Assembly: GCA_022844265.1 (NCBI GenBank)
Contig: JALHMA010000001.1
Span: 18,260-82,259 of the forward strand
Direction of reading: 5' to 3'
Source of the DNA: Saprospiraceae bacterium
GTDB taxonomy: Bacteria > Bacteroidota > Bacteroidia > Chitinophagales > Saprospiraceae
DNA length: 64,000 bases
Below are positions 3,623 to 59,862 of this stretch, piece after piece. A program made the translations under genes and the position numbers. How positions within the stretch are numbered: position 1 is the first letter of the stretch; each line of letters begins with the position of its first letter. The notes beneath the pieces are model-generated. The model saw nothing but the letters and a program-made list of their open reading frames with translations, made no database searches and was not told the DNA's origin.

Positions 3623-3700
3623 GTGTTTGGTGTTTGGTTTTTCGTGTTTGGGGGTACTTCGCTTTTGGCATCTTGTGGTGTAGGTTTACAGGCCTGAAAT
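3623..3700. repeat. Truncated (left-arm only) copy of the GTGTTTGG hairpin element family
   Basis: gtgtttggtgtttggtttttcgtgtttgggggtacttcgcttttggcatcttgtgg...ggcctgaaat aligns with the left arms and loops of the elements at 40718 and 42220. No complementary right arm follows. Confidence 0.6.
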
Positions 3701-3714
3701 ACCCAAGTCCAAAT

Positions 3715-3770
3715 CTCTCACCCTCTCACCCTCTCACCCTCTCACCCTCTCACCCTCTCACCCTCTCACC
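3715..3770. repeat. Perfect octanucleotide microsatellite (CTCTCACC)x7
   Basis: Counted directly: seven head-to-tail perfect copies. It is intergenic, lying 4 nt downstream of the histidine-kinase stop (3775-3777) and about 110 nt upstream of the haloperoxidase-like start at 3605. Confidence 0.95.
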
Positions 3771-3774
3771 TCTG

Positions 3775-5136
3775 TTAAGGGAAACTCAATTTGAACGTCG
3801 TTCCTTTTCCTTGTGCCGACACAACGTCCAATACCACATGGTGGAGTTTCAGAATGCTTTCCACTAAGGAAAGGCCGATGCCGGATCCGCGCACATGGAT
3901 GTTTTGTGAACTTCGATAAAAGGGTTGAAAAATCAGTTGCATATCTTTGGGAGGGATGCCCGGACCGTGATCCGTAATTTCCACATAGTGTTTTCCGGAT
4001 GATTCGAAACCAATTTTTACTTCCACTTTTTTGTCCTGTGAAAACTTGCATCCGTTGTCCATCAGGTTCTGGAAAGCCGAGCGAAGCAGCGATTCGTTGC
4101 CGAGCACACAAAGTTGATCTTCACTTTCAGGGATACCTTCGATATCGAATGAAATATGATAATCCGGATGCAGACGCAGCAGGGCGGCCCTGGTTTGCAG
4201 CATGATTTCATCCAGCCGAACCTGTTCAAAAGTAATATTGGCGCCTTCCGAATGCACACGCGCCAGTTGAAGCAGTTTTTCCGTCACGTCGCTGAGTTCG
4301 CGGGTATCTTCCAGTACGGAAGTCAGCGTGGCGTGGTATTCGGGCGCATTGCGTTTTTTATCAAGCGCTACTTCCAATTGAGAAAGAATAACGGAGAGCG
4401 GATTTTTTAATTCGTGCGATACATTGGAAATAAAACTTTTTTGCATTCGAAAAGCAAACTGAATGCGGTCGAGCAGGCGGTTGAAAGTAATAACAAGCCT
4501 TGAAATCTCATCGTGGTTATTGGACACGTCGAGGCGCGCACTCAGGTCGGAAGGCAAAATATGATCCACCTGGTTGATAATGCGCGACACGGGCGACATG
4601 GCTTGTCCTGCATAGAACCAGCCGCCGGCAGCTACAATTCCGATGCCCATAAAGAAACTGATAATCAGGATATTGCGCAGGTTGCCGAGTTCTTCGGAAT
4701 TAAAAATGGATTCGGCCACGATCAGGTACTCCTTGCCACTGTGGCTGGTATGTCGCACCGCGATCGCATGTAAGTTTCCATGTTGAAAACAGGTTTCTTC
4801 ATTCGATTTGAGTTCGCGCAGCCGGTTGTCAGTCAGCGGTTCTCCATCCCGGTTGAAGGCAAAAACCATTTGTAGTTTGCCATTGTAGATGACCACATTT
4901 TCCCTGAATGGCAGCAATTCGGCGTTTTCAGAATTGTTTTCTGTTGTCAGTATTTGCAATTTTTCTTCTTCATGGAGCACCATTTCGGCGGTCATCAGCG
5001 CTTTAGAGCGCAGGTTGTTATAAAATTCATCCTCCGTGATTTGCCGGAATTTGAAATAAATAAAACAAAGCGACAGCAGAAGGATGCCGGCCACGAGTAT
5101 GATAAATTGTAAAGTAAGTTTTGTACGAATTTGCAT
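3775..5136 (-). CDS. Two-component sensor histidine kinase
   Basis: It has two predicted TM segments, an H-box SHELKNPLS, and N/G boxes (NLMDNGCKF, DHGPGI, GSGIGLSLV). Confidence 0.87.
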   Translation of the reverse strand: MQIRTKLTLQFIILVAGILLLSLCFIYFKFRQITEDEFYNNLRSKALMTAEMVLHEEEKLQILTTENNSENAELLPFRENVVIYNGKLQMVFAFNRDGEPLTDNRLRELKSNEETCFQHGNLHAIAVRHTSHSGKEYLIVAESIFNSEELGNLRNILIISFFMGIGIVAAGGWFYAGQAMSPVSRIINQVDHILPSDLSARLDVSNNHDEISRLVITFNRLLDRIQFAFRMQKSFISNVSHELKNPLSVILSQLEVALDKKRNAPEYHATLTSVLEDTRELSDVTEKLLQLARVHSEGANITFEQVRLDEIMLQTRAALLRLHPDYHISFDIEGIPESEDQLCVLGNESLLRSAFQNLMDNGCKFSQDKKVEVKIGFESSGKHYVEITDHGPGIPPKDMQLIFQPFYRSSQNIHVRGSGIGLSLVESILKLHHVVLDVVSAQGKGTTFKLSFP

Positions 5137-13290: not shown

Positions 13291-14781
13291 ATGTTTGATT
13301 TAAAGAAAATGGAGGTGTGGTTTGTCACGGGCAGCCAGCACCTGTATGGTGAAGAAACGTTGCGAAAAGTGGCGGAACATTCTCAAACAATTGCCCGCGC
13401 ACTGGATACTTCGGCCCAAATACCGGTTCGGGTGGTGTTCAAACCGGTGGTGAAGACGCCTGATGAAATTTACCAACTCTGCCAGGCTTCCAATACTGAT
13501 CCGAATTGTATCGGGATTGTCGCCTGGATGCATACGTTTTCCCCGGCTAAAATGTGGATTCGCGGTCTACAAACACTGCAAAAACCAATGTGCCACCTGC
13601 ATACGCAGTTCAACCGCGACATTCCATGGGGCAATATCGATATGGATTTTATGAACCTGAACCAGTCGGCGCATGGCGACCGGGAGTTCGGTTTTATGGT
13701 TTCCCGCTTGCGGCTGCGGCGAAAGGTAGTGGTCGGTCATTGGCAAGACCCGCAGGTACACGATCGGCTGAGCGTCTGGATGCGGGCCGCCGCAGCGCGA
13801 TTTGATTGGCAGGGCGCAAAATTTGCCCGGTTTGGCGACAATATGCGCCAGGTTGCGGTGACGGAAGGCGATAAAGTGGAAGCGGAAATCCAGTTCGGCT
13901 ACTCCGTAAATGGTTATGGCGTTGGCGATTTGGCAAAGTTGATCCGTGAAGTGTCAGATGGCGCCGTTCAACAACTCGTCGATGAATACAATGAAATGTA
14001 TCAACTGTCTTCCGCTCTGCGCAAAGGCGGTGCGGCGCATAACTCCCTGAAAGAAGCAGCCCGTATTGAAATCGGGATGCGCCAATTCCTGGAAGCGGGC
14101 GGTTTTAAAGGATTTACGGATACTTTTGAAGACCTGCACGGTTTAGTACAACTTCCGGGTATTGCCTCGCAGCGCCTTATGGCAGAAGGATACGGCTTCG
14201 GCGCTGAAGGCGACTGGAAAACGGCCGCATTGGTTCGCGCCGCGAAGGTCATGGCTGCCGGTTTGCCCGGCGGTAACTCGTTTATGGAGGATTATACCTA
14301 TCATTTTGATCCTGATAATCAGTTGGTGTTGGGCGCTCACATGCTCGAAATATGCCCTTCCATCGCTTCCGGCAAGCCTGCCTGTGAGATACACCCGCTC
14401 GGTATTGGCGGCAAGGCAGACCCCGTCCGGCTTGTATTCGATGTGGCTGGCGGTGCGGCGCTGAACGCATCGCTGATTGATATGGGCAATCGTTTCCGCC
14501 TCCTCGTCAATGAAGTGGAAGCCGTGGCGCCGACAGAAAAACTGCCCAATTTGCCCATTGCGCGCGTGTTGTGGAAATCATTACCTGACTTGAATACGGC
14601 CTGTGCAGCATGGATTTATGCGGGCGGCGCGCACCACACCGTGTTCAGCCAAAACCTGACGACGGAATACTTTGAGGATTTTGCTGAAATGTTCGACCTC
14701 GAACTGACGGTGATTGATGCAAAAACGGAGTTGCGGCAGTTTAAAAATGAGTTGAGGTGGAGCGAAGCTATTTATAAATGA
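13291..14781 (+). CDS. araA: L-arabinose isomerase
   Basis: The protein is 496 aa and begins [18 protein letters not shown]. It also contains [16 protein letters not shown] and MLEICPSIA, all typical of AraA. Confidence 0.95.
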
Positions 14782-14920
14782 TGAATGATGAGTGATGAAT
14801 GATGAGTGATGAATGATGAGTGATGAATGATGAATGCCGGGCGCGAAGCCAAACATTTATCATTCATCATTCCCTATTCATCATTCATCACTCATCATTT
14901 ATCATTCATAATTCATCATT
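14779..14920. repeat. Long word-repeat hairpin at the araA|araB junction
   Basis: The left arm is built of TGATGA[AG] words (14779-14836) and the right arm of their complement (14854-14920). The loop is ccgggcgcgaagccaaa. The element begins inside the araA stop codon and ends 4 nt before the araB ATG. Confidence 0.85.
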
Positions 14921-14924
14921 AACT

Positions 14925-16556
14925 ATGAATTATGTTATCGGACTTGACTACGGCACCGACTCCGTTCGCGCCCTGATTGCAGATGCTGCCGACGGGCGGG
15001 AAGTGTCTTCTGCCGTTTTTTACTACCCGCGCTGGAAGGCCGGGAAATACTGCAATCCGGGGGCTTCCATGTTTAGGCAGCATCCGCTCGATTACCTGGA
15101 AGGTTTGGAAGCATCTGTAAAAATGGCTTTGTCGCAGGCGCCTAAAGAAGTGGCTGACAACGTAGTCGGCATATCGGTCGATACAACAGGCTCCACGCCC
15201 GTTGCTGTCGACAAAAATGGTACGCCCTTGGCGTTGCTGCCCGAATTTGCGGAGAACCCGCACGGTATGTTCGTGCTCTGGAAAGACCATACCGCCAATG
15301 CGGAAGCAGAAGAAATTAACACCCTGGCACACCGTTGGGAAATCGATTTTACCAAGTATGTCGGCGGCATATATTCTTCCGAATGGTTTTGGGCAAAAAT
15401 CCTGCGAACCCTGCGGGTAGATGAAGCCGTCCGAAATGCCGCTTTTTCCTGGGTGGAGCATTGCGACTGGCTGTCCGCAGTGCTGCATGGAGATACGAAC
15501 CCGTTGACCCTGAAACGTTCCCGCTGTGCAGCCGGACATAAAGCCATGTGGCACGAAGAATTCGGGGGATTGCCGAGCGAGGCTTTTCTGACGCAACTCG
15601 ATCCGCTACTGGCAGGACTTCGCGATCGGCTTTACCGCCAAACCTACTCGTCAGATATGCCGATGGGTACGATTTCAAAGGAATGGGCACAGCGTCTGGG
15701 TTTACCCGAAAACGTGGTCGTGGGGGTCGGCGCGTTCGATGCCCACATGGGTGCTGTCGGGGCTGGGATCGAGCCGTATTCCCTGGTTCGGGTAATGGGA
15801 ACTTCTACCTGCGATATGTTGATTGCGCCCAACGAAGAGGTTGGCAACTTGCTCATTCGCGGCATTTGCGGACAAGTGGATGGCTCTATTTTGCCCGGCA
15901 TGCTGGGAATGGAAGCCGGTCAATCGGCTTTCGGCGACGTATATGCCTGGTTTCAAAACCTGCTGGCCTGGCCGCTGCGCGAATTTTTAAGCGAAGAAGA
16001 GGCCGAAAAAATGGTACATAAAATAATCCCGGCCCTGTCCGAAAAAGCCGCATTGTTGCCTGTTACGGAACACGATGCGGTAGCGCTTGACTGGTTCAAC
16101 GGCCGCCGTACACCTGATGCGAATCATACGTTGAAAGCAGCCATAGCAGGCTTGAATCTCGGTACGGACGCACCTCAAATATTTAAAGCGCTGGTGGAAT
16201 CCACGGCATTCGGCGCCAGGCGTATTGTCGAACGTTTCCAGTCCGAAGGCGTTCCGATCCGGCAGGTTATCGGCATTGGCGGAGTATCAAAAAAATCACC
16301 TTTTGTGATGCAAAACCTTGCTAATGTGTTGAATATGCCTATCAAAATTGTAGAATCAGAACAAGCCTGCGCACTGGGCGCGGCGATTTGCGCGGCGACG
16401 GCGGCGGGTGTTTACCAGACTATGGCTGCTGCACAGACTGCGATGGCTTCCGGTTATGATGCTACATTTCATCCACAACAGGATAGGGTAGCGGTGTATG
16501 AAAAATTGTATCAGAAGTATTTGGCACTGGGTGGTTTTGTTGAAAATCAATATTAG
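14925..16556 (+). CDS. araB: Ribulokinase
   Basis: It starts MNYVIGLDYGTDSVRAL (FGGY kinase N-terminus) and contains GTSTCDM and GIGGVSKKSPFVMQ. The upstream 35 codons of the track ORF (IIHHSLFIIHHSS...) are a translation of the hairpin and are excluded. Confidence 0.9.
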   Translation: MNYVIGLDYGTDSVRALIADAADGREVSSAVFYYPRWKAGKYCNPGASMFRQHPLDYLEGLEASVKMALSQAPKEVADNVVGISVDTTGSTPVAVDKNGTPLALLPEFAENPHGMFVLWKDHTANAEAEEINTLAHRWEIDFTKYVGGIYSSEWFWAKILRTLRVDEAVRNAAFSWVEHCDWLSAVLHGDTNPLTLKRSRCAAGHKAMWHEEFGGLPSEAFLTQLDPLLAGLRDRLYRQTYSSDMPMGTISKEWAQRLGLPENVVVGVGAFDAHMGAVGAGIEPYSLVRVMGTSTCDMLIAPNEEVGNLLIRGICGQVDGSILPGMLGMEAGQSAFGDVYAWFQNLLAWPLREFLSEEEAEKMVHKIIPALSEKAALLPVTEHDAVALDWFNGRRTPDANHTLKAAIAGLNLGTDAPQIFKALVESTAFGARRIVERFQSEGVPIRQVIGIGGVSKKSPFVMQNLANVLNMPIKIVESEQACALGAAICAATAAGVYQTMAAAQTAMASGYDATFHPQQDRVAVYEKLYQKYLALGGFVENQY

Positions 16557-16563
16557 AAATCAA

Positions 16564-16693
16564 ATGAAACACGGTTTTTTTACCACATAGTTCACATAGG
16601 GGTTTCACATAGATCACATAGCAAAATGATATGGACTATGTGATCTATGTGAAACCCCTATGTGAACTATGTGGTAAAAAAACCGTGTTTCAT
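16564..16693. repeat. Perfect 58-bp inverted repeat with 14-nt loop at the araB|abfA junction
   Basis: I checked base by base that 16564-16621 is the exact reverse complement of 16636-16693. The arms contain the word CACATAG four times. The element ends 14 nt before ATG 16708. Confidence 0.95.
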
Positions 16694-18243: not shown

Positions 18244-18274
18244 AAGACTGATAACTAATACAATAGCACACAAG

Positions 18275-18368
18275 TTTTTTTGAGTATTCGAGTATGCGAG
18301 GATTTGAGTATAAATGATTCGTTATCAGTCAGATACTCGAATACTCAAATCTTCAAATACTCAAAAAA
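18275..18368. repeat. GAGTAT/ACTCGAATACTC hairpin element, copy 1 (abfA|araD junction)
   Basis: The 53-nt core at 18302-18354 is identical to 30142-30194. The arms are tttttgagtattcgagtat... and ...atactcgaatactcaaa. A 12-nt direct repeat actgataactaa flanks it (18247-18258 and 18373-18384). Confidence 0.85.
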
Positions 18369-18387
18369 GTTAACTGATAACTAAACA

Positions 18388-20989: not shown

Positions 20990-22141
20990 ATGAAAAAAAT
21001 TGACCTGGCCCTCTGTATTGTACTTTTCGGAACTCTCTTTGCATTGTATTGCTGCAAACAAACCGCTCCCACGCCCAAGGCCACGATTGAAAAGAGTGCT
21101 TTTGGCGCCTTGCCCGATGGGCGAACGGCCGATTTGTACACCTTGCGGAATGAGCAGGGCATGACCGTACAGATTACCAATTTCGGCGGCGCCATTACTT
21201 CCTGGACGGCCCCGGATAAAACGGGCAAATACGAGGATATTACACTGGGTTGTGATTCACTTGCCGGCTACCTGCGCGGCACCCCTTTTTTTGGAGCGTT
21301 GATCGGACGGTACGGCAATCGCATCGCCAAAGGGAAATTCACACTGGATAGCGCCACGTATTCATTAGCAACCAATAATATCGGCAATCACCTGCACGGC
21401 GGCATCGTCGGTTTTGATAAGGTATTGTGGTCGGCTAAGGTAATCGAACATGAAAGACCAACGCTGCAACTCACGTATGTGTCAAAAGATGGCGAGGAAG
21501 GTTATCCCGGCGAACTGTCTGTCGAAGTGATATACACTTTGCTAAAGGAAAATGCCTTAAGTATACACTATTCAGCGACTACAGACAAACCAACGGTAGT
21601 GAACCTGACCAACCATGCGTATTTCAACCTCGCGAACGGGGGCAAAGGCGATATTCTTCAACATGAATTGATGTTGAGTGCCGATGCTTTCTTACCGGTG
21701 GACAGTACGCTGATCCCGACGGGTGAACAGCGCCCGGTGAAAGGAACGGTATTCGATTTTACGCAGCCCACAAAAATCGGTGCGCGTATCGACGATACCG
21801 CTGATGTTCAGATCAAATACGGGTTGGGTTATGACCATTGCTGGGTATTCAATAAGGCGCACAGTAGTACGGCGCAATTGATTGCTACCCTGTACGAACC
21901 CACTTCGGGTCGCCTGCTGGAGGTATTGACTACAGAACCCGCCATCCAGTTTTATTCGGGCAATTTTCTGGATGGAACAGTGATCGGAAAAGGTGGCGTG
22001 GCGTATCAAAAACGCTCCGGTCTTTGCCTCGAAACACAACATTTTCCGGATTCGCCCAACAAGCCGGATTTTCCGAGCACGGTGCTGCGGCCGGGGGAAA
22101 AGTACCAGACGACAACGGTGTACCGATGCTCTGTTAAATAA
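20990..22141 (+). CDS. galM: Aldose 1-epimerase (mutarotase)
   Basis: It has a signal/lipoprotein-like N-terminus and contains GRYGNRIAKGKF, NHLHGG, NLTNHAYFNL and CLETQHFPDSPN. Confidence 0.9.
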   Translation: MKKIDLALCIVLFGTLFALYCCKQTAPTPKATIEKSAFGALPDGRTADLYTLRNEQGMTVQITNFGGAITSWTAPDKTGKYEDITLGCDSLAGYLRGTPFFGALIGRYGNRIAKGKFTLDSATYSLATNNIGNHLHGGIVGFDKVLWSAKVIEHERPTLQLTYVSKDGEEGYPGELSVEVIYTLLKENALSIHYSATTDKPTVVNLTNHAYFNLANGGKGDILQHELMLSADAFLPVDSTLIPTGEQRPVKGTVFDFTQPTKIGARIDDTADVQIKYGLGYDHCWVFNKAHSSTAQLIATLYEPTSGRLLEVLTTEPAIQFYSGNFLDGTVIGKGGVAYQKRSGLCLETQHFPDSPNKPDFPSTVLRPGEKYQTTTVYRCSVK

Positions 22142-22267
22142 GTGTGTATGGTGTTTCGTGTTTAGTGTTTGGGGCTTCGCCTTTGGCGACTGTAGGTAAT
22201 TCAGCCAAAATACACACAGTCGCCAAAGGCGAAGCGCCCTAAACACTAAATACCAAACACGAAACAC
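22142..22267. repeat. GTGTTTGG-family hairpin element (galM|amidohydrolase convergent junction)
   Basis: The left arm is gtgtgtatggtgtttcgtgtttagtgtttggggcttcgcctttggcgactgt. The right arm is acagtcgccaaaggcgaagcgccctaaacactaaataccaaacacgaaacac. The element fills the gap between the two stop codons exactly. Confidence 0.9.
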
Positions 22268-22268
22268 T

Positions 22269-25200
22269 TTAATGTCCGCAAACGCACCTAGCTTCCTGGC
22301 AGCTATGGCTCATACCCGCGCCGCTCGTGTGGCTACCCGGCATTTCAAACCAGAATTTGTTCCGTTTTTTATTGTAGTTACCGATTTCATCGAGCGTTGC
22401 AGCATCGAACAAACGACCATTGACCATTACATAACGAATTGATTCCGAGTTTTTTATATCGTCCAACGGGTTTTGGTCGAGCACAATCAGGTCAGCGAGT
22501 TTACCGGCTTTCAGCGAGCCGATTTCTTTGTCCATGCCGAGGTGTATGGCCCCGTTGATGGTCGCGCATTTCAAAGCCTGCAGGTTGCTCATGCCGCCTT
22601 GTTGCAGCATCCAGAGTTCCCAGTGCGCACCGAGTCCGTTGAGTTGGCCGTGCGCGCCGAGGTTGATGTTGACGCCGGCGTCCTGGAGTTTTTTACAGGA
22701 TTGACTGACTAGAATGTGGCCATTCAGGTATTCTTCTTCCGGCGCCATGGTGCGGTGGCGGCTGCGTTCGTCGAGGATATGTTTCGGCGTGAACTGGAGC
22801 AGCCGCTCTTTTTTCCATACTTCCGTATTCTGGTACCAGAAGTATTCGCCGGTAAGGCTGCCGTAGTTCACAATCAGGGTAGGGGTGTTGTGCGTTCCGG
22901 TTTTGCTCCATAAATTGATCACATCGGAGTACAGCGGCGCCACGGGCAGGTTGTGCTCGACAGAACTATGACCGTCTACCACTTCCGTCAGGTTGTGGTG
23001 AAAGAAAGAACCGCCTTCGGGCACCACGAGCATACCCAGTTCCCGGGCGGCAGCGATGACCTGCTGGCGCTGATCGCGGCGCGGCTGGTTATAACTTTTT
23101 ACGGATAAAGCGCCCCAGGCTTTGGTGCGGCGCAGCGCGGATCGCGCGTCTTCCAGCGAATTAATGGGCGCTTTAAAATCGCCGTCAGCGCCGTACAGGA
23201 TAGTGCCGGTGGAAAAAAGTCTCGGCCCGATCATGTGTCCTGCCTTGAGCATTTCGGCGTTGCTGAACGCCATTTCGGAGTTGACGGAAGGGTCGTGCTG
23301 CGTGGTGACACCATAGGCGAGTTGGGCGTAGTACTCCCATTGTTTTTGCGGATTCAGACCAAATCGGAAATTTCCGGGGTGTGCGTGAACGTCCAGCATG
23401 CCCGGCATAATGGTTTTGCCACTGCAATCGATGATTTTAGGGTTATTGACCCGGAATCGTGCTGCCTGGTATTCCGTTTGAGAGCCGACAAAAGTGATTT
23501 TATTGCGTTCCACCACCAATACGCCGTTTTCAATCACGCGGTCGTTTTCCATTGTGATGATGCGGGCATTTTCAAAAACAAGCGCGCCCTCCGGCATGTC
23601 GCTTTGCAGGGTCAGGCCAATTTTCAGACCGGCGGTGTCCAGCGGCGGCAAGGTATCCGGCGCGCCTTCGACGAATGCAAAACGTTTGTCCAGGTTGATG
23701 GTGAAATATTCATCACCGAGCGTGTAGTGCAGTTTTTTGGAGTCGCCACTCCAGTGCAGGTTGTAGCCCGCGTCGCGGCTGACTTGTGCAACCGGCACAG
23801 CCTTCGTGTCGGCGGCGAGGTCCACCGTTTTTCCGGCAGGCGGCAAAGCACAGATGTATGTTTTATGCAATTCGCTGAATGCCAGCCATTTGCCGTCGGG
23901 TGAGGCCGTCCATTGATTGGCGTATTTGCCTTTAAAATGGATGCGCTCATCCTTTCCGTTCAAGTCATAAGATTTCAAGGATTTGTCCAATGCGCCGAAC
24001 AAGGCGCCGCCGGTGTTGACATAAATACGTTTTCCATCGGCGGAAAATCGCGGGTATTCGCCGCCTTCAGCGATAAACCGCAGGTTTTTCCCATCCGAAT
24101 CCACGACATAAATACCGGGTTTCTCGGTCATGGCGGGGCCCATTTCGTCGTCGCCATTTTGCATCCTGAAAACAACCTGTTTGCCATCCGGAGAAAAAGA
24201 AGGGGTGCGGTAAATACCGGGAGCAGTGATGAGGCTACGCAAAGCGGTGGCATCTTTTCCGGTTTGCTGCCAGATCAGCAGATCGCCTTTTTTTTCGTCG
24301 TTCCAGATAACAAAAGCGATGGAGCGGCCATCGGGTGAAAAGGCCGGTTCTGCCTGCACATCATCCTCCCGCAATCCGCTGCCCGTGGGGAACATCAGGT
24401 TTGTTTTCCCGTCCGGCAGCATTTTTTTATACAAACGACCTGCGGCATTAAAAAGCAGGATTTTGCCGTCTGGGCTGGTTACGGCATTGCGAATGGCATG
24501 GGCGGTAAAGCTCGGTTCGAAAGCCTTGTTTTCAAAACGCAGGGTTTCGGCTACTTTGGTTTTCACTGTGCTGGTAAACGGAATATCGGTCACTACCGGT
24601 TTGGAGCCGGTAGCCAAAGAAGCCATTTCCGGCAGCGCTATCTTCCTGATTTTTCCTCCTGCCCAGATGACGATAGATTTTCCGTCGGGCATCCAGGAGA
24701 ATCCCGGGTAGCACCCGAAAGTCGTCCAGGCTTCCTGCTGGTCTTTGTCCAAAGCATCGTACACGGGGTATTCCAGGCCCGTTTCCAGGTTGCGGATACA
24801 CAAAACCGTTTTAGTATAATCACGGCGTACGAAAGCCAGCCATTTGCCGTCGCCTGATACCTGCGGTCGGCAAGCGCCCCCGGAGCCCCCGGTCACGGTT
24901 TCCACCTTGTCTTCCTGGCGGTCGTAGCGGCGGATGGCAAAAATCTGGGTATTCGGGTTTTTATTGTATTGAAAAGCGCCGCCGCCGTACATGTCTTCGC
25001 TGAAATAGATATAGCGGCCATCACGGCTTGCGGAAGGTTCATTGACGTCCTGCTGATCGTTTTTACGTTTGGTGAGTTGTACGCCCTCTCCGCCGGCAGT
25101 ATGGTACATCCAGAGTTCGCCGGCCCCCAGCGAACGGGTATTGGTGAAATGTTTGCGGGCGACGATGTACTGATTGTCCAGCCAGACTGCATTGTTGAGC

Positions 25201-30113: not shown

Positions 30114-30211
30114 AAATTTTTGAATATTCGAGGATGCGAGTATTTGAGTATAAATGATTCGTTATCAGTCAGATACTCGAATACTCAAATCTTCGGATAC
30201 TCAAAAAAATT
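30114..30211. repeat. GAGTAT/ACTCGAATACTC hairpin element, copy 2
   Basis: The 53-nt core at 30142-30194 is identical to 18302-18354. A 10-nt direct repeat tattaagtac flanks it (about 30093-30102 and 30222-30231). Confidence 0.85.
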
Positions 30212-30245
30212 AGGGACTATCTATTAAGTACAAGTACGATATTTT

Positions 30246-30920: not shown

Positions 30921-31030
30921 GGTTGATGAGGTTTATAAAGGTTGATGAGGTTGATATACATCTACTCGATAAGGCTCCCTTTCGAGTGGCTGTATATCAA
31001 CCTCATCAACCTTTATAAACCTCATCAACC
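30921..31030. repeat. GTTTATAA/GGTTGATGAG hairpin element
   Basis: The perfect 38-nt arms are 30921-30958 and 30993-31030. The 34-nt loop contains actcgat...cgagtggct, which is shared with the element at 58067-58179. Confidence 0.9.
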
Positions 31031-31666: not shown

Positions 31667-31718
31667 AAGAGATGGTTCTGTTTATTTGATGTGAAGAAAA
31701 ACTGCTGCTGATCGATTA

Positions 31719-31780
31719 TTTGAAGATTCGAGTATTCGACTAATTACGAATGCCAATACTCGTATACTCGAATCTTCAAA
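31719..31780. repeat. GAGTAT-family hairpin, copy 3 (diverged)
   Basis: tttgaagattcgagtat (31719-31735) pairs perfectly with atactcgaatcttcaaa (31764-31780). Confidence 0.75.
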
Positions 31781-31847
31781 TACTCCATAAAACACTCGAC
31801 GTTGAAACTGACAACAAGGTTACAGGCAAGGCTGCATTTTCACAATA

Positions 31848-40262: not shown

Positions 40263-40340
40263 CCTCAACCCTCTCTCAACAACTCAACCTCTCAACCTCT
40301 CAACCCTCAACCCTCAACAACTCAACCTCTCAACAAATTA
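40263..40340 (+). repeat. C/A-rich CTCAAC word tract with no complementary arm
   Basis: The sequence cctcaaccctctctcaacaactcaacctctcaacctctcaaccctcaaccctcaacaactcaacctctcaac contains about 10 CTCAAC words. It forms the whole leader upstream of the mscL ATG at 40349. Confidence 0.8.
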
Positions 40341-40348
40341 AACAGCGT

Positions 40349-40717
40349 ATGTGGACCCAACTCAGAACCTTTCTCATGCGGGGAAGTATTCTCGAATTAG
40401 CCGTAGGTGTCATCATTGGTGCGGCATTTGGTAAAATTGTCTCAGCCCTGGTAGATAATATTTTGATGCCCCTGATCGGCATTGCCATGGGCGGTGTAAA
40501 TTTTCAAGCACTCAGCGCTAAAATACTTGGTGTAGATATTGGCTTCGGCGCCTTTTTGCAGGCGATCTTTGATTTTACGCTGATCGGCGTAGTCTTGTTT
40601 TTGCTGCTGCGGATAGCGGGAAAAAATCCTGTACCTGAGCCTCCGCCTCCACCAGCAATTACCACCGAAGAATTGCTGACGGAAATCCGCGATTTATTGA
40701 AAGAACGTGGGAAATAG
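40349..40717 (+). CDS. mscL: Large-conductance mechanosensitive channel
   Basis: FLMRGSILELAVGVIIGAAFGKIVSALVDNILMPLIG is canonical MscL. The track ORF start at 40169 translates the low-complexity tract and overlaps the previous gene, so I reject it. Confidence 0.9.
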   Translation: MWTQLRTFLMRGSILELAVGVIIGAAFGKIVSALVDNILMPLIGIAMGGVNFQALSAKILGVDIGFGAFLQAIFDFTLIGVVLFLLLRIAGKNPVPEPPPPPAITTEELLTEIRDLLKERGK

Positions 40718-40856
40718 TGTTTGGTGTTTAGGATTTGGTGTTTAGGGCGCTTCGCCCTTGGTCTGTGTGGATTGTTTGGCCTGAATCCCCACAGATGCCA
40801 AGGGCGAAGCGCCCTAAACACCAAACACTAAACACCAAATCCTAAACACCAAACAC
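40718..40856. repeat. GTGTTTGG-family hairpin element (mscL|amidohydrolase convergent junction)
   Basis: The arms are built of GTGTTT[AG]G words plus the core gggcgcttcgcccttgg/ccaagggcgaagcgccc. The right arm carries about two extra heptamers. The element fills the gap from stop to stop. Confidence 0.9.
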
Positions 40857-42100
40857 TACTTCAGCACTGTCCCGTTCTTTACTTTAAATGCGGAAGCCCT
40901 GATTTTCAGGATATTGGTAAACGGATCACCATTTAATACCAGAAAACTCGCTTCATAACCTTCTTTCAGTTTGCCGATTTTCCGGTTTGGGAAAATAGCG
41001 CCGGGGGTGTTTTCACAAACGATCCTGAGCAAATCGGGGCCATTTTGTTTGGACAAACCATTCAGGTAATTGATTTCGCTGCGGAGGGTGCGTTGCGGAT
41101 CGTCTGATGCGATAATCAGGTTGACCCCGCTGCTCATTAAACGGCTAAACATTTTGGTGTGAAAATCCTTTACCGCAGGCCGTGGAGTGGCGGATTGTGC
41201 ATGAGACAACAGCGTGGCAACGGGCGTTCTTTTCTTGGATAATTTTTTAAGATCGTTATTGGAAATCATAAACCTGGCCGGATCACCCGAACCGTCCCAG
41301 TTATGTCCCGGCAGGTTTGCAAATCCATCCACCCCGATTTTTATTCCAATCTCAACATCAGTGCCTGTTTCTACCCAGGCCAGAACGCGCAGTTTCGCTT
41401 TATGCGCCTTTTTCACGACGGCTTTTGCCATGTCGACAGAAAGTCCTTTACTTTCTTTACCGCCATTGATCTGTGCATCCAGCAGGTAAATCATCAGGAC
41501 GTCCGGTTTTTGCGCAATGATTTTTTCCCAGTTGGCATCCAGCGCGTCTTTGTTATCTGCAAACCAATAAGCGTCGCCCAGCAATTTGCGACCGGTTTTG
41601 ATCTTGTTGTAAGCATTTGACCATTCGGCCGGATTGGGGACATCCTGTGCGGGGCCTTCAAATTTGAGAAACGGTTCGCCCAGGGAACAGGTTATGGCGC
41701 CGTTGGTGAAAATGGCATCGGGTGTATTGGATTTGTTCATCAAAGGCTGAACCGTTTTGCGGCCTTCCTGGGTATTATTCAAAATCTGCACGTAAAATAC
41801 ACCTTCATCCAGGTATTGTTTCGCCATGTTCGCTGCAGAACGGTTGCCGGAAATACTGGAACAACCGGCATCGGCCATCGGAGGAATCACCCAGTGCCCA
41901 TCCAGATCGACGATGGAATCTATCTTAACTGGGGCTTTTTGAGTGAGTAATCCGTTGCTGACATACCAGGTTGCTTTGACAAATTCAAGTCCGGTAAACC
42001 ATTGTCCGTTTTTGTATTCGTAATTTTTTCCGGCAGACTGGGCAGATGAAAACTGGCTTAAAAGGCAAAAAACAAGCGTGGAGAAGAGTAACTTCTTCAT
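40856..42100 (-). CDS. Secreted amidohydrolase-superfamily-like protein
   Basis: It has a signal peptide (MKKLLFSTLVFCLL). The C-terminus GYEASFLVLNGDPFTNILKIRASAFKVKNGTVL resembles the amidohydrolase composite-domain ending. The metal-binding HxH motif is not evident, so the call is tentative. Confidence 0.45.
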   Translation of the reverse strand: MKKLLFSTLVFCLLSQFSSAQSAGKNYEYKNGQWFTGLEFVKATWYVSNGLLTQKAPVKIDSIVDLDGHWVIPPMADAGCSSISGNRSAANMAKQYLDEGVFYVQILNNTQEGRKTVQPLMNKSNTPDAIFTNGAITCSLGEPFLKFEGPAQDVPNPAEWSNAYNKIKTGRKLLGDAYWFADNKDALDANWEKIIAQKPDVLMIYLLDAQINGGKESKGLSVDMAKAVVKKAHKAKLRVLAWVETGTDVEIGIKIGVDGFANLPGHNWDGSGDPARFMISNNDLKKLSKKRTPVATLLSHAQSATPRPAVKDFHTKMFSRLMSSGVNLIIASDDPQRTLRSEINYLNGLSKQNGPDLLRIVCENTPGAIFPNRKIGKLKEGYEASFLVLNGDPFTNILKIRASAFKVKNGTVLK

Positions 42101-42219
42101 AAGGTAAGTTGATTCGCTAATAAATAAGGTGAGTAAACAGCGTTCAGGGCTAAAAACAAACGGCAAAAGTAGCAGGACTGGCGGGCTTCTTCAGCAGGTT
42201 AACAAACTGTTCAGGAATC

Positions 42220-42360
42220 GTGTTTGGTGTTTAGTGTTTGGTATTTAGTGTTTGGGGCGCTTTGCCTTTGGCATCTGTGGGAATTCAGGCCAAAGCAACT
42301 CACAGATGCCAAAGGCGAAGCACCCTAAACACCAAATACCAAATACCAAATACCAAACAC
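42220..42360. repeat. GTGTTTGG-family hairpin element downstream of mtgA
   Basis: The left arm is gtgtttggtgtttagtgtttggtatttagtgtttggggcgctttgcctttggcatctgtg. The right arm is cacagatgccaaaggcgaagcaccctaaacaccaaataccaaataccaaataccaaacac. Confidence 0.9.
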
Positions 42361-42361
42361 G

Positions 42362-43153
42362 TCATTTCCCCGGCTTTTTTGGCGTATTCGGCTCCTCATA
42401 ATCTATTTTGCCGCCCCACATGCGCATTTGACTCAGTATCCATTGCTGGCGTTTACGCACATCCGAACTCGGTTGATTGACCTTGTAAATCAGCGGATTA
42501 GGCAGCACTGCCGCAAGCATAGCCGCTTCTTGTCGGTTGAGATCTTTAGCGGTTTTTTTGAAATAGTGCTGTGCGGCTGCCTCTGCGCCATAAATCCCGT
42601 CGCCGAATTCGATCACATTCAGGTAACTCGACATGATGCGTTCTTTACTCCAGATGGTTTCAATCAGGAAAGTAAAATACACTTCCAGACCTTTGCGAAT
42701 CCAGGAACGGCTGGGCCAGAGAAACACATTTTTGGCCGTCTGCTGGCTGATCGTACTTGCTCCGCGCTTGCGTTTGTGGGTTTTGTTGTATTTGTAAGCC
42801 TTTTCGATGGCTTCGAAATCAAAACCTTCGTGTTCCAGAAAATCCTGGTCCTCCGCACACACCACGGCCAATTGCAGGTGGGGCGACAGCTCTCTGAGCG
42901 GTACCCAGTAGTTGTCTAGCCGCACATCGCGCTCCGGATCCCAGGCCTGCTCCCAGGTACGCTGCAACATGAGCGGCGTCAAAGGCACCGGCAACAAGGT
43001 ATACAGCAATGTCATACCGATCGTAATGCCGAAAAACCAAAGGGTCAGCCGGATCAACATGTTGCGGAGGTATCTGCCCCAAAGCGGGTTACCTGCTTCG
43101 TTTTTGGGAATGTTGCGATACCAGCTGCGGAGAATACGTTTCAAAAAGTTCAA
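42362..43153 (-). CDS. mtgA: Monofunctional peptidoglycan glycosyltransferase (GT51)
   Basis: It contains EDQDFLEHEGFDFEAI, GASTISQQTAKN and RKGLEVYFTFLIE. The start is a TTG at 43153, and an internal ATG start is possible. Confidence 0.88.
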   Translation of the reverse strand: MNFLKRILRSWYRNIPKNEAGNPLWGRYLRNMLIRLTLWFFGITIGMTLLYTLLPVPLTPLMLQRTWEQAWDPERDVRLDNYWVPLRELSPHLQLAVVCAEDQDFLEHEGFDFEAIEKAYKYNKTHKRKRGASTISQQTAKNVFLWPSRSWIRKGLEVYFTFLIETIWSKERIMSSYLNVIEFGDGIYGAEAAAQHYFKKTAKDLNRQEAAMLAAVLPNPLIYKVNQPSSDVRKRQQWILSQMRMWGGKIDYEEPNTPKKPGK

Positions 43154-45784: not shown

Positions 45785-45970
45785 CTTAGAGTTGTGCTAA
45801 AAGGCCCAGCGGGCCTATATCTTTGTAGCAGTGTTGGATTTAATTTGGTACCCGGCCCAGCGGGCCGGTATTTATTCGATAAAGATACCGGCCCGCTGGG
45901 CCGGATAGAATTTTCTTTGGCGTTACTACAAAGATATAGGCCCGCTGGGCCTTTTGACACAACCCCAAGT
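45785..45970. repeat. Nested GC-rich palindrome carrying four copies of GGCCCAGCGGGCC
   Basis: The outer perfect 30-nt stem pairs 45799-45828 with 45926-45955. The inner perfect 20-nt stem pairs 45852-45871 with 45885-45904. The 13-mers lie at 45803, 45854, 45890 (reverse complement) and 45939 (reverse complement). Confidence 0.9.
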
Positions 45971-46903: not shown

Positions 46904-47824
46904 ATGAAAAATTTCCTGCTCTTTTCCCTGCTTCTGTGTCTGTGCGCGCAACTGTCTGCACAACTGCCCCAGACTGCATCCGGCACGGTACAACGTTTTG
47001 AAAATTTCCCTTCCAAATACGTCAGTCCCAGGCATGTCGACGTCTGGCTGCCGGATGGTTACTCCACCCGGGAGAAGTATGCGGTGCTGTACATGCACGA
47101 CGGACAAATGTTGTTCGATTCCGCCACTACCTGGAATAAACAGGAATGGGGCGTGGATGAAACAATGAGCCGACTGCTCGCAGCAGGGAAAATCAGAAAC
47201 TGCATCGTGGTGGGTATCTGGAACAGCGGCAAAACGCGCCACTCCAATTATTTTCCTCAAAAACCTTTTGAATCCTTGCCCGAAAGCCTCCAGGACTCTC
47301 TCCTGTATCTTGCCAAACGAGACCAGCAATCGGGTTTGTTCTCAATCGCGGTTAACTCCGACCACTACCTGCATTTTCTGGTGCACGAACTCAAACCATT
47401 CATCGACAGCCGTTTTTCAACCAAAAAAGATCGGAAAAACACCTTTATCGCCGGATCGAGTATGGGCGGCCTGATCTCCATGTACGCCATCTGCGAATAC
47501 CCGAAAGTATTCGGCGGCGCTGCCTGCCTGTCCACCCACTGGCCGGGCACTTTTGCGGTGGAAAACAACCCGATCCCCGACGCTTTTATACAGTACATGC
47601 GCACTCATTTGCCCAGCCCGAAAACGCATACATTTTACTTTGATTACGGTACTGCTACCCTGGATGCGCTCTACGAACCGTTTCAAATCAAGGCCGATCA
47701 GGTCATGGCTGCCAAAGGTTATACCGCTAAAAACTGGATCACCCGGAAATTTGAAGGGGAAGATCATTCGGAAAGGGCATGGCGGGGGAGGCTGGGGATT
47801 CCGCTGGAGTTTATTTTGAAGTAG
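46904..47824 (+). CDS. Secreted alpha/beta-hydrolase esterase (enterochelin-esterase-like 'putative esterase' family)
   Basis: It has a signal peptide and a nucleophile elbow GSSMGG within FIAGSSMGGLISMY. It contains VLYMHDGQMLFD. Confidence 0.7.
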   Translation: MKNFLLFSLLLCLCAQLSAQLPQTASGTVQRFENFPSKYVSPRHVDVWLPDGYSTREKYAVLYMHDGQMLFDSATTWNKQEWGVDETMSRLLAAGKIRNCIVVGIWNSGKTRHSNYFPQKPFESLPESLQDSLLYLAKRDQQSGLFSIAVNSDHYLHFLVHELKPFIDSRFSTKKDRKNTFIAGSSMGGLISMYAICEYPKVFGGAACLSTHWPGTFAVENNPIPDAFIQYMRTHLPSPKTHTFYFDYGTATLDALYEPFQIKADQVMAAKGYTAKNWITRKFEGEDHSERAWRGRLGIPLEFILK

Positions 47825-48030
47825 TTATGAGTTATGAGTTATGAGTTATGAGTTATGAGTTATGAGTTATTGGAGTTTCATGCTGGAATGGGAAAATGGA
47901 GGTTGCATTCTTTCCCGTTCCAGCATGAAACTCCAATAACTCATAACTCATAACTCATAACTCATAACTCATAACTCATAACTCATAACTTATAACTCAT
48001 AACTCATCATTCATAACTCATAACTCATAA
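47825..48030. repeat. Heptamer-array hairpin: (TTATGAG)x6 ... core stem ... (CTCATAA)x13
   Basis: Counted directly. Six perfect TTATGAG units span 47825-47866. The core stem pairs ttattggagtttcatgctggaa with ttccagcatgaaactccaataa. Thirteen CTCATAA-type units (10 perfect) span 47940-48030. Confidence 0.95.
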
Positions 48031-48041
48031 TGATTTTCCCC

Positions 48042-58066: not shown

Positions 58067-58179
58067 GGGTTTATAAGTTTATGGGTTTATGAGTTTATAA
58101 AAGCCACTCGATGAGGGAGACAATATCTCACTATCCGAGTGGCTTTTATAAACTCATAAACCCATAAACTTATAAACCC
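58067..58179. repeat. GTTTATAA-family hairpin: perfect 44-bp stem, 25-nt loop
   Basis: I checked that 58067-58110 is the exact reverse complement of 58136-58179. It lies between the convergent glucosaminidase and secG genes. It shares the words tttatgggttta, gtttataaa and ccactcgat/cgagtggct with 30904-31030. Confidence 0.95.
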
Positions 58180-58465: not shown

Positions 58466-59263
58466 CTAATTTTTAAGTTTTTCAATTTCGGCGGCAAAGT
58501 ACGCACTTTTTTCGGGAAACGCCAAACATAGTCGTTCGTACATTAAAATGGCCTTCTCTTTGTAGCCCTGTTTCACCAATAATTTTGCAAGTGTTTCTGA
58601 AATCACGTCCCTGTTTTCAGATACGCTGCGTTCCGCCAATTGCTGTGCGATGCCTTTTTCTGCGGGCAGGGCAGGGGCTTTCGAGGTTTTTGGCAATGGC
58701 GCCTGTTCGGTTTGTGGTTTTCTGGGTTCCAATACCGGCGGCTGAAAACGATTTACCCAGTCTGCAAAAGGTTCCGGCACCGTTTTTTGAACAGGCGGCG
58801 GCGGGGTTGTCATGCGGATTTCCGGTATATCGGTACTGCTTTCGGCAACTGGTGTTTTTTCTTTTTCAGTTGATTCTGCCGGTGGAGCGGTCATCGCAGC
58901 AGCTGCCGCTACTTCCGTCTGTTTTTCTTCCCTGGGAACCGGGCTGAGCGCTTCCAGTTCCTGGCGAACCGTTTCAATCGGCTTGAGTTCGAGCACCTCT
59001 TCTTTTTCCAGCATTTTTTGAGGTACAATGGCCTTCGGCGCCATGAGCACAAAAAGTTGCGTGCGATCGAGGCTATACATGGCCGCTGCGTTCAGGGTAC
59101 GGGCTGCTTCCGGGTGTTCTATTTTATCCGCCTTCAAGGCAAGCAGGTAGCGCAGGTTATGGGCATAAGGATAAGCCAGTGCAAGCGTTTTGAGTTCCTC
59201 ATAGGAAATATTCGCCAGCAGTTCCGGGTCGTTAAGTATGCGAAAAAAGCGTTCCTGAGTCAT
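58466..59263 (-). CDS. Uncharacterised protein (Pro/Glu-rich middle, TPR-like C-terminus)
   Basis: The ORF is 265 aa and lies 5 nt upstream of secG. The C-terminus reads [35 protein letters not shown]. No family name can be assigned from sequence alone. Confidence 0.5.
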
Positions 59264-59356
59264 GTGTAAGGTGTTTGGTGTTTCGTTTTTGGTGTTTCAT
59301 ATCCGGAATGCTCAAAGCAACGCAGCCCAAACCCCAAACACCAAAAACCAGACACC
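59264..59356. repeat. Degenerate GTGTTTGG-family element
   Basis: ggtgtttggtgtttcgtttttggtgttt partially pairs with aaaccccaaacaccaaaaaccagacacc. It fills the lptE-like|hypothetical junction. Confidence 0.6.
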
Positions 59357-59364
59357 CAAAAATA

Positions 59365-59862
59365 CTACCAGTCATTAAAAGCTGCATTAAAAATATCTTC
59401 CAGCAATTGATCGCCGATCTGCCGAACCAGTTGGTCCTGCACCGTCAGTAAATCGGTCGAATTGGAAAATTCAGCGAAGTGACTGAAATCGCGCTCATTG
59501 GGCCAGCCTTTTTTTTCATTTTTATTATTGATAAAACCGACACGCATCCTGATTTCCAGGCGGTTAAGCGAAATCTGTTCGCCCGGTTTCGGCGCTACCG
59601 GTATCACGCGAAAGTCTGTTATTTTACCTGTAAACTCAACATCCGCTTCGGTGGTATTGAGTTGCAGACGCGTTTCGGAACGGACTTTATCTTTGATGCG
59701 CTCTCCAAAATCCAGGCCCAGCGTAGGCGGCGCATTGGCGGCAATGGTCTCAAAATTGCGCACGTAAAATGTATTTACGTCAGGATCGATGGAGATGCCT
59801 TTGAAGGAATAACAACCGAGTGTCGACAGGACAAACAAAAGCAGAAAAACACGAAGTATCAT
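59365..59862 (-). CDS. LptE-like LPS-assembly lipoprotein
   Basis: It has a lipobox LSTLGC, is 165 aa, and sits in the gene order lptE-hypothetical-secG. The assignment rests partly on that context. Confidence 0.5.
   Translation of the reverse strand: MILRVFLLLFVLSTLGCYSFKGISIDPDVNTFYVRNFETIAANAPPTLGLDFGERIKDKVRSETRLQLNTTEADVEFTGKITDFRVIPVAPKPGEQISLNRLEIRMRVGFINNKNEKKGWPNERDFSHFAEFSNSTDLLTVQDQLVRQIGDQLLEDIFNAAFNDW

Follow-up and report, generated by a model that had tools for sequence, protein, structure and literature searches.

A lineage-restricted family of gene-end palindromes in Saprospiraceae that probably multiplies by copying between hairpin sites

Introduction

Heptamer arrays of cyanobacteria, the short tandemly repeated repetitive (STRR) sequences, and the small dispersed repeats (SDR) nested within them are said to have been described by Mazel in 1990 and by Elhai in 2008. 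These repeats are intergenic and hairpin-capable, the small repeats nest in one another, compensatory changes keep their folds, and no transposase is known for them. In plastids, small hairpin loops at gene 3′ ends undergo the inversions called 'flip-flop'. Here, we report on a family of palindromes with arms of tandem GTGTTTN words, found in 64,000 nucleotides of a Saprospiraceae bacterium (positions 18,260 to 82,259 of contig JALHMA010000001.1, assembly GCA_022844265.1; this whole stretch is called the window below), and in particular on its copies at window positions 40718-40856 and 42220-42360. We consider it probable that the element is a lineage-specific, non-coding, non-autonomous palindromic cassette which has been multiplied by copying between hairpin sites at gene ends.

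The family appears to work most like the cyanobacterial system, since it combines heptamer arms with self-nesting at the apex. This is a likeness of behaviour, with no relationship in sequence or taxonomy. The two differ in phylum and in sequences, and the words and core of the present family travel jointly as one palindrome of about 126 nt. We know of no description of stop-codon contact, centre flips or a switch from a 7-nt to an 8-nt unit for STRR or SDR. The plastid flip-flop is used as a working analogy: either loop orientation occurs in close relatives, which would imply recombination or template switching between the arms, although the plastid hairpins are single-copy and local and do not form a dispersed family.

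Populations of repetitive extragenic palindromic (REP) sequences and of REPINs, i.e., inverted REP doublets, are found together with REP-associated tyrosine transposases (RAYT) in Pseudomonas and Enterobacteria (PMC3116915, PMC3733652, PMC5581495). Like REPINs, the GTGTTTN family consists of hundreds of non-coding, non-autonomous copies outside genes and mostly near their 3′ ends, each a hairpin of two inverted halves; it is vertically inherited, clade-restricted and divided into sequence sub-families. It differs from them in that no RAYT gene adjoins it or shares its distribution and no GTAG or CGTC tag is present, and also in its variable tandem heptamer or octamer arms, its apex nesting, its replacement by rival families and its Bacteroidota host. 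The TAACTGA heptamers of Beggiatoaceae, Cyanobacteria and a few Bacteroidetes are likewise lineage-restricted intergenic arrays with stop triplets; they are, however, direct repeats just upstream of starts, with essentially no inverted partner, and were proposed to be regulator binding sites (PMC4679880), whereas the elements described here are palindromes after stop codons. In the literature we found no description of such repeats for Saprospiraceae or Bacteroidetes.

Results

The window copies belong to a genome-wide family

The window is positions 18260-82259 of contig C1 in the source metagenome-assembled genome (MAG; G000, 6.05 Mb in 561 contigs, 49.6% GC). Three full copies, at 22142-22267, 40718-40856 and 42220-42360, align with one another over a core of ~85 nt and their arms, and a nhmmer profile recovers them with E-values of 1e-19 to 1e-20. 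They share one order of parts: tandem GTGTTTN words, the stem GGGCGCTTCGCC(T/C)TTGG(C), a centre of ~35 nt, the complementary stem and NAAACAC words. In the family at large, the outer arms consist of 1-6 GTGTTTN/NAAACAC heptamers, the GC-rich stem has 18 bp (GGGCGCTTCGCCTTTGGC and its complement), and the centre is an inner hairpin of ~35 nt with the apex TTTGGCCAAA. As single-stranded DNA, each of the three folds into a single long hairpin (-48.5, -60.9 and -51.7 kcal/mol, in the order given above; z-scores -13.4, -15.3 and -11.5), and none of 200 shuffles was as stable.

These results bear out the paralogy that a sequence-only reading had proposed for the three copies. That reading had counted four full copies; the sequences are found where it placed them, but the full ones number three, because the centre at 59264-59364 is unrelated and 3623-3700 is only a left half which does not fold by itself (z = +1.05). 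The family is not confined to the window, hence the observation generalises: an iterated nhmmer search with the core profile found 275 loci in the genome, 206 of them near full length, a density of roughly one in every 29 kb; together they make up 0.42% of the genome. Since 36 of the loci lie within 150 nt of a contig end, 275 is a lower bound. The likeness also exceeds what low complexity would give by chance, as the 19-mer GGCGAAGCGCCCNAAACAC occurs 131 times and its non-complemented reverse never. In contrast, a suggested relationship to the loop of the hairpin between araA and araB through the core GCGAAGC is weak, this 7-mer being found 1118 times in the genome when ~739 are expected.

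The median length with arms is 126 nt (range about 90-170 nt). Most arms have 2-4 words, and in about two thirds of the copies the two arms differ in word number. One sub-family has the palindromic centre GCAACTGTGTG-AATTTGGCCAAAAT-CACACAGTTGC and another the asymmetric centre GCAGTAGTTGATATTTTGGTCGAATTTTCACAAATGC. A short form, in which the left half of the inner hairpin is deleted, was recognised by eye at ~25 loci, and a strict motif search for it gave 36 matches.

Derived forms recur at many loci and nest at the apex

Copying between loci is shown by the recurrence of the same derived deletion or nested composite at 11 to about 25 loci. The clearest case is a three-layer composite present at 11 loci with the identical junction CGTGAATC|GTGTTTN, in which (RGTGAGAG)n is followed by GACATCCCGCTTGGC, TTTCAGGCCTGTAATCGTGAATC and a 'C-type' copy of the family, and then by the mirror of these parts. 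The same RGTGAGAG shell encloses the GTGAGTN family at no fewer than 14 other loci. The half copy and CTCTCACC array at window positions 3623-3770 are a remnant of this composite. Such shared nested composites mean that sequence was copied between loci, be it by transposition or by ectopic conversion between shell-bearing sites.

When a stem ends in ..TTGGCC and not in ..TTGGCA, an inner copy or a foreign palindrome follows in about 22 of 29 cases; nested inner copies have the form GGCC|(C)GTGTTTGG...CCAAACAC(G)|GGCC, and a foreign palindrome reads ATTCCCCCGACCCC... in this position. Inner units sit exactly at the apex of the host palindrome, up to three layers deep, and the apex of the ordinary centre is likewise TTTGGCCAAA.

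Several families of tandem-word palindromes, the GTGTTTN family among them, nest within and replace one another. Others in the window and genome combine GATGAAT words with the core GACCGAGCGTTATG or GTGAGTN words with the core GGCATCTCGTTAGAAGAA, and still others are built of AGTTATG, GTTTATR or CACATAG words or of GAGTATTY octamers, with words and cores that are unrelated. In total, ~330 intergenic regions of the source genome have hairpin arms with a period of 7 or 8, and the GTGTTTN family makes up roughly half of them.

The family is restricted to a few related genomes

An exact 25-nt pattern spanning core and junction was searched in 185,579 species, one genome each, and was found only in four Lewinellaceae/Saprospiraceae MAGs and on one contig labelled 'Dermatophilaceae' (JBAOHJ010000003.1). 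Horizontal transfer to an actinobacterium was considered and rejected for the latter, as this contig is chimeric: its first ~2 kb have 71% GC, while the remainder, at ~51% GC, matches contig C174 of the source genome with 94% identity, including a composite family copy. None of 300 sampled genomes of the same GTDB family contained the family. A covariance model run on 114 genomes of the genus, with rough E-values, gave high copy numbers in seven, 1-7 weak matches in about 15 and none in the remaining 92. The seven are the source genome G000, G041 (also G348), G042 (also G398), G043 (also G363), G354, G360 and G374. Diverged versions keep the same plan with details altered in concert: octamer arms (GTGTTTTN) occur in G354 and G360 together with the stem GGAGGGCTTCGCTCTTGGCA, and G374 combines heptamer arms with a stem that has GTTG/CAAC in place of TTCG/CGAA, a compensated change. 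No copy was found in the IMG/VR, phage and plasmid collections, and a phage, plasmid or viral carrier was discarded, the two matches from Neisseria being weak and of low complexity.

Sites persist between sister species while their content changes

The closest species, G041, is available as a long-read assembly and has ~93% identity in the flanks. Both copies at 40718-40856 and 42220-42360 are present there at the same sites. When 8-kb loci centred on copies in G041 were compared with the source genome, the latter had the family at 32 of 44 syntenic sites, and the reverse test on 1.17 Mb of G041 gave 25 of 36. At most discordant sites the partner genome has a different word-palindrome family at the identical spot, and at several of them (C27, C77, C122/L017) the new family is enclosed by what is left of the old family's outermost words, so that replacement has proceeded from the inside outwards.

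The centre also inverts in place. In 5 of 12 strictly comparable pairs of G000 and G041, both window copies included, the ~34-nt centre is reverse-complemented; that of 42220-42360 matches the reverse complement of its G041 orthologue perfectly. Word number changes too: the arms of 8 of 11 such pairs have unequal numbers of units. This supports the slippage that had been proposed from the imbalance of the copy at 40717-40856, which does have four units on the left and six on the right.

A natural deletion allele is also known. A relative of ~94% identity, seen in several biofilm, bioreactor and soil metagenome runs, lacks 42196-42363 (168 nt, i.e., the element and 24 nt) and has a single T instead; its mtgA-like gene ends in TAG and not in TGA. 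This comparison used Logan contigs, which otherwise break at the elements.

Copies reside directly after stop codons

The 206 near-full copies were placed relative to called open reading frames (ORFs): 90 lie in co-directional, 56 in convergent and 18 in divergent gaps, 15 inside called ORFs and 27 at contig edges. Among gaps of 40-600 nt, 11.4% of the convergent, 5.8% of the co-directional and 3.2% of the divergent ones are occupied, roughly in proportion to how many gene 3′ ends a class contains. The median distance between stop codon and outer edge is 3 nt, with a sharp mode at 0-4 nt (61 of 202; a further 42 of 202 are at -1 to -10 nt). Smaller offset classes at -1, -8 and -15 nt arise where the ORF is terminated by a TAG in word one, two or three. 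Of 148 adjacent stops, 72 are TAG, vs 22.6% genome-wide. A TA or TAG target of the IS630/Tc1-like kind was judged unlikely, as there are also copies next to TGA or TAA and copies whose flanks are not TA. Families made of other words, such as the RGTGAGAG shell, start at stops as well; contact with the stop is therefore unlikely to reflect a sequence-specific target.

In 27 convergent pairs, a single element fills the entire gap of 76-191 nt from stop to stop. The sequence-only reading had described this for three window copies, and it holds for two of them (22142-22268, and 40718-40855, where both TAG stops overlap the arms), but the copy at 42220-42360 lies between co-directional genes. Concordance of the two stop codons across the filled gaps is modest (16 of 27 vs 11.5 expected), and only in two of the 27 does the palindrome reach into both ORFs, by about 12 nt. 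At these two loci (C80:~18373 and C142:~7653 of the source genome) the convergent genes have identical last four codons and a TAG stop, e.g., gaaacgctgaaaTAG on both sides, as though copying of one arm had overwritten the end of the other gene.

Complementarity is maintained without a strand bias

In a MAFFT/RNAalifold alignment of 67 copies with 19 stem pairs, 95.8% of the stem cells are paired, compared with 30-52% in slid controls. Double, compensatory changes are found at nine stem pairs; they amount to 93 cells vs 28.6 ± 6.1 after shuffling, and 0 of 500 shuffles reached 93. The variable seventh base of the innermost word is identical on both arms in 103 of 181 copies, when 66 are expected. 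This covariation has no counterpart in signals of selection on RNA. In 86 co-directional contexts, the more stable fold is that of the sense strand 38 times and that of the antisense strand 47 times (Wilcoxon p = 0.98), there are 232 GU pairs for sense and 235 for antisense, and the asymmetric sub-families are oriented relative to genes in 7 vs 9 and 3 vs 3 cases. A T-rich tail (at least 6 T in the 12 nt past the hairpin) follows 6 of the 86, the downstream composition being A-rich. With strong covariation and no strand bias, complementarity is best explained at the level of DNA, through arm-to-arm copying or selection on a symmetric structure; a function of one RNA strand fits less well.

These data bear on the alternative that the elements are host terminators, or hairpins protecting mRNA 3′ ends, and that their likeness stems from concerted evolution by ectopic gene conversion and not from movement. 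We hold this to be unlikely, while recognising how much of the gene context agrees with it: the bias to gene 3′ ends is strong, copies are flush with stop codons, a palindrome acts in both directions and so suits convergent genes, and the majority of sites is kept between sister species. The amidohydrolase-like gene beside the focal copies adds a further point. The identity of its product is 91% in G041, 90% in G042 and 77% in G043, and it is 46-57% in the other congeners sampled. Two of these distant congeners have unrelated word-hairpins flush with the same stop despite a different convergent neighbour; yet a long inverted repeat is absent from the locus in five of nine congeners. Intrinsic terminators are moreover defined by a short GC-rich hairpin with a U-tract behind it on the transcribed strand, and stems of 40-60 bp with a median minimum free energy of about -75 kcal/mol (RNA parameters) far exceed the needs of termination. 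A role at transcript ends also leaves unexplained the size of the elements, the absent strand bias, and the self-nesting at the apex and three-layer composites, which have no obvious purpose in termination; nor does it suit the 18 copies in divergent, promoter-side gaps and the 15 that overlap called ORFs.

No mobilising gene was found with the family

The sequence-only reading had called the family REP/MITE-like, where MITE stands for miniature inverted-repeat transposable element. As a description this is apt: the copies are dispersed, paralogous, non-coding, numerous, outside genes and biased to 3′ ends, and their sub-families share derived indels. Membership in either class does not follow, given that other palindromes flank the RAYT-like genes and that neither a target-site duplication nor an autonomous parent was found. 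The best reading is of a REPIN/MITE-like yet RAYT-independent family.

A Pfam search for Y1_Tnp in the source genome found two intact RAYT-like genes and one fragment. Together with vertical inheritance, restriction to a clade, and stem halves that each hold the palindrome GGCG-AAG-CGCC (11 nt, much shorter than a typical REP of 20-40 nt) and pair as an inverted doublet into a hairpin, this would be expected of REPINs on which a RAYT acts in trans from another place in the genome. We nevertheless find this explanation very improbable. The ends of the consensus GTGTTTN-GGGCGCTTCGCCTTTGGC have no GTAG or CGTC tag. The intact genes (C123:6734-7186 and C3:42264-42716) are surrounded by private palindromes, GCGCCCTTTCAGGGCT and CATAGGGTGACGCCCTATG, which occur only 3-5 times in the genome (regions C123:6600-7460 and C3:42080-43100, the latter with tandem CATAGGGTGACGCCCTATG units). 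In G041, the gene at C3:34474-34917 is flanked by GCCCCAGCGGGGC arrays (C3:34075-34470). No Y1 gene examined, in G000 or the one in G041, was flanked by GTGTTTN/GGCGAAGC copies, the nearest family copy being about 3 kb away. In a genus-wide survey with the C123 gene as the only query, the three family-rich genomes closest to the source genome (G348, G398 and G363) had no orthologue of at least 60% identity, only paralogues of 37-39%, and many family-free genomes had orthologues of 65-85%. A link to RAYT was therefore rejected, as these genes neither adjoin the family nor share its distribution.

A classical MITE, derived from an insertion sequence with the arms and stem as inverted ends and moved by a DDE transposase, would agree with the short, non-coding, high-copy nature of the element, its size, its terminal inverted symmetry and its sub-families. 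We rate it as very improbable, because the ends are variable (1-6 words per arm) where fixed ones are expected, direct duplications of a target were not observed, nested copies have flanks that are mutually complementary and not direct repeats, and the entire element is one palindrome and not two short terminal inverted repeats around unrelated DNA. Left and right halves lying 200-6000 nt apart enclosed no transposase-like ORF in the source genome and 1.17 Mb of G041, a search that did not exhaust the clade. A GIY-YIG nuclease gene on contig C139 proved a false lead as a parent: this single-copy gene lies between two copies of a different palindromic repeat, GTGTCATCCTGAGCG[CT]AGCGAAGGACCCGAAAG (C139:9690-10440).

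Growth in place by slippage and hairpin-templated repair, with likeness through low-complexity convergence, might be entertained as the arms are simple repeats that slip and word-hairpins with many different words exist, but it is effectively refuted by the ~80-nt non-repetitive core with asymmetric centres and shared indels that is common to ~200 loci (E-values down to 1e-23), control patterns and shuffles giving none.

Features of the window

The coordinates are collected in Table 1. The first G of the left arm of the focal copy doubles as the final base of the TAG stop of an mscL-like gene (+ strand, stop at 40715-40717), and its right arm ends in a C with which the CTA (= TAG) stop of the convergent amidohydrolase-like gene (- strand, 40856-42100) begins. 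The copy at 42220-42360 begins 1 nt past the TGA stop of an mtgA-like gene (- strand), upstream of the amidohydrolase-like gene, and its far edge is ~55-120 nt upstream of the next start. A comparison of the whole window with Rfam gave no match at the gathering score of any family.

The mscL-like gene (about 40340-40717) and an upstream array of CTCTCAAC words (window 40273-40717 in all) are present in G000 and G043 and missing at the site in G041 and G042, where the element abuts a different neighbour. The CTCTCAAC array has 7-nt and 14-nt indels among metagenome strains.

The degenerate relative at 59264-59364 (hidden Markov model E = 0.009, fold z = -2.96) takes up the whole gap from the stop of the ORF at 59365-59862 to the first ATG of that at 58466-59263, both on the - strand; either a single transcript runs through the hairpin from one gene to the next, or the second ORF really begins at a later start. 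The octamer array ends 4 nt short of the stop of the gene at 3775-5136 (- strand). Boxes of GGCCCAGCGGGCC at 45785-45970 may be of the GCCCCAGCGGGGC type.

Table 1. Positions of the palindromes and their parts (window coordinates unless a locus is named)
Feature	Position	Description
Focal copy, left arm	40717-40744	four heptamers, GTGTTTG GTGTTTA GGATTTG GTGTTTA
Focal copy, left stem half	40745-40761	GC-rich, conserved, GGGCGCTTCGCCCTTGG
Focal copy, centre	40762-40797	inner mini-hairpin; reverse-complemented in the orthologue of sister species G041
Focal copy, right stem half	40798-40814	conserved, CCAAGGGCGAAGCGCCC
Focal copy, right arm	40815-40856	six NAAACAC heptamers, vs four on the left
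Full copy	42220-42360	5 + 5 heptamers; stem 42255-42272 / 42308-42325; centre 42273-42307
Full copy	22142-22267	convergent gap, + gene stop 22139-22141, - gene stop 22269-22271; left stem one base short
Degenerate relative	59264-59364	GTGTTTN/NAAACAC-like arms, unrelated centre, no GC-rich stem
Left half copy	3623-3700	arms, left stem and part of centre; joined to shell remnant TTTACAGGCCTGAAAT
Octamer array CTCTCACC	3707-3770	outermost arm of the composite shell that encloses full family copies elsewhere
Other tandem-word palindromes	14766-14933, 16564-16693, 18277-18372, 30117-30212, 30921-31030, 31716-31799, 47823-48031, 58067-58179	words GATGAAT/GATGAGT, CACATAG (perfect 58-nt arms), GAGTATTY octamers, GGTTGATGAGG, AGTTATG, GTTTATR
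Word-hairpin after amidohydrolase stop	L073:1290-1491 (G218)	GGTTTCA
Word-hairpin after amidohydrolase stop	L080:1412-1482 (G023)	GGTTATT

Discussion

A cassette copied between gene-end hairpin sites would account for these observations as follows. The two arms may interact as DNA, in a hairpin or a cruciform at replication. Template switching or conversion between the arms would then keep them complementary and flip the centre. New cassettes would enter at hairpin tips, either through an enzyme acting on extruded hairpins or through template switching guided by microhomology, for which the words would provide the landing sites. Palindromes flush with stop codons would be what remains after deletion bias and after selection against harm to ORFs and promoters. 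The cell probably either tolerates the elements or makes use of them as putative two-way transcript-end hairpins, a plausible role.

A more specific version of this idea is put forward tentatively, and we would not call it the probable one. The palindromes could be replicators that need neither RAYT nor any other transposase, the words providing microhomology in multiple registers and the cassette being copied into a stalled or extruded hairpin tip by template switching or by an enzyme specific to such tips. Gene-end sites would then be permanent and their content overwritten from the inside, and the unit length (7 vs 8 nt) and the stem would drift genome-wide in concert.

Several points weigh against multiplication by copying of a cassette. 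Ectopic gene conversion between existing hairpin sites could mimic transposition, and the unrelated word-hairpins after the same gene in distant congeners fit selection for a hairpin as well as they fit invasion. About 70% of the sites are common to species with ~93% flank identity, so movement is slow. No clean empty site was recovered, as the sole natural deletion allele also removes the 24 further nt. No target-site duplication and no consistent direct repeat at the stop-codon junctions were recovered; because nested copies lie between self-complementary GGCC...GGCC, a 4-bp duplication there is indistinguishable from palindromic flanks. No mobilising protein was found by the Y1_Tnp search, in the flanks or by the split-half search. 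The gene calls came from a crude longest-ORF caller. Finally, the source genome is a fragmented short-read assembly, which could in principle mis-set the orientation of the centre; this is countered by the long reads of G041 and by G042, which matches G041 at one flipped site.

Short interspersed palindromes belong to the least understood parts of bacterial genomes, and RAYT-REPIN systems are an exception in that their mode of spread is known. The palindromes are of practical relevance, too: they break short-read assemblies, they contributed to the recognition of one contig of a public MAG as chimeric, and, as marks of gene ends, they matter for the annotation of these genomes. With its many copies, a long-read sister genome, competing families, flips, slippage and apex nesting, and replacements which can be counted and dated, the GTGTTTN family is a tractable natural system in an abundant, uncultured group of wastewater and freshwater bacteria. 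If it does spread without a dedicated transposase, the family would show how replication errors alone can create and maintain a genome-wide population of repeats; if it depends on an enzyme, hairpin tips would be what that enzyme recognises.

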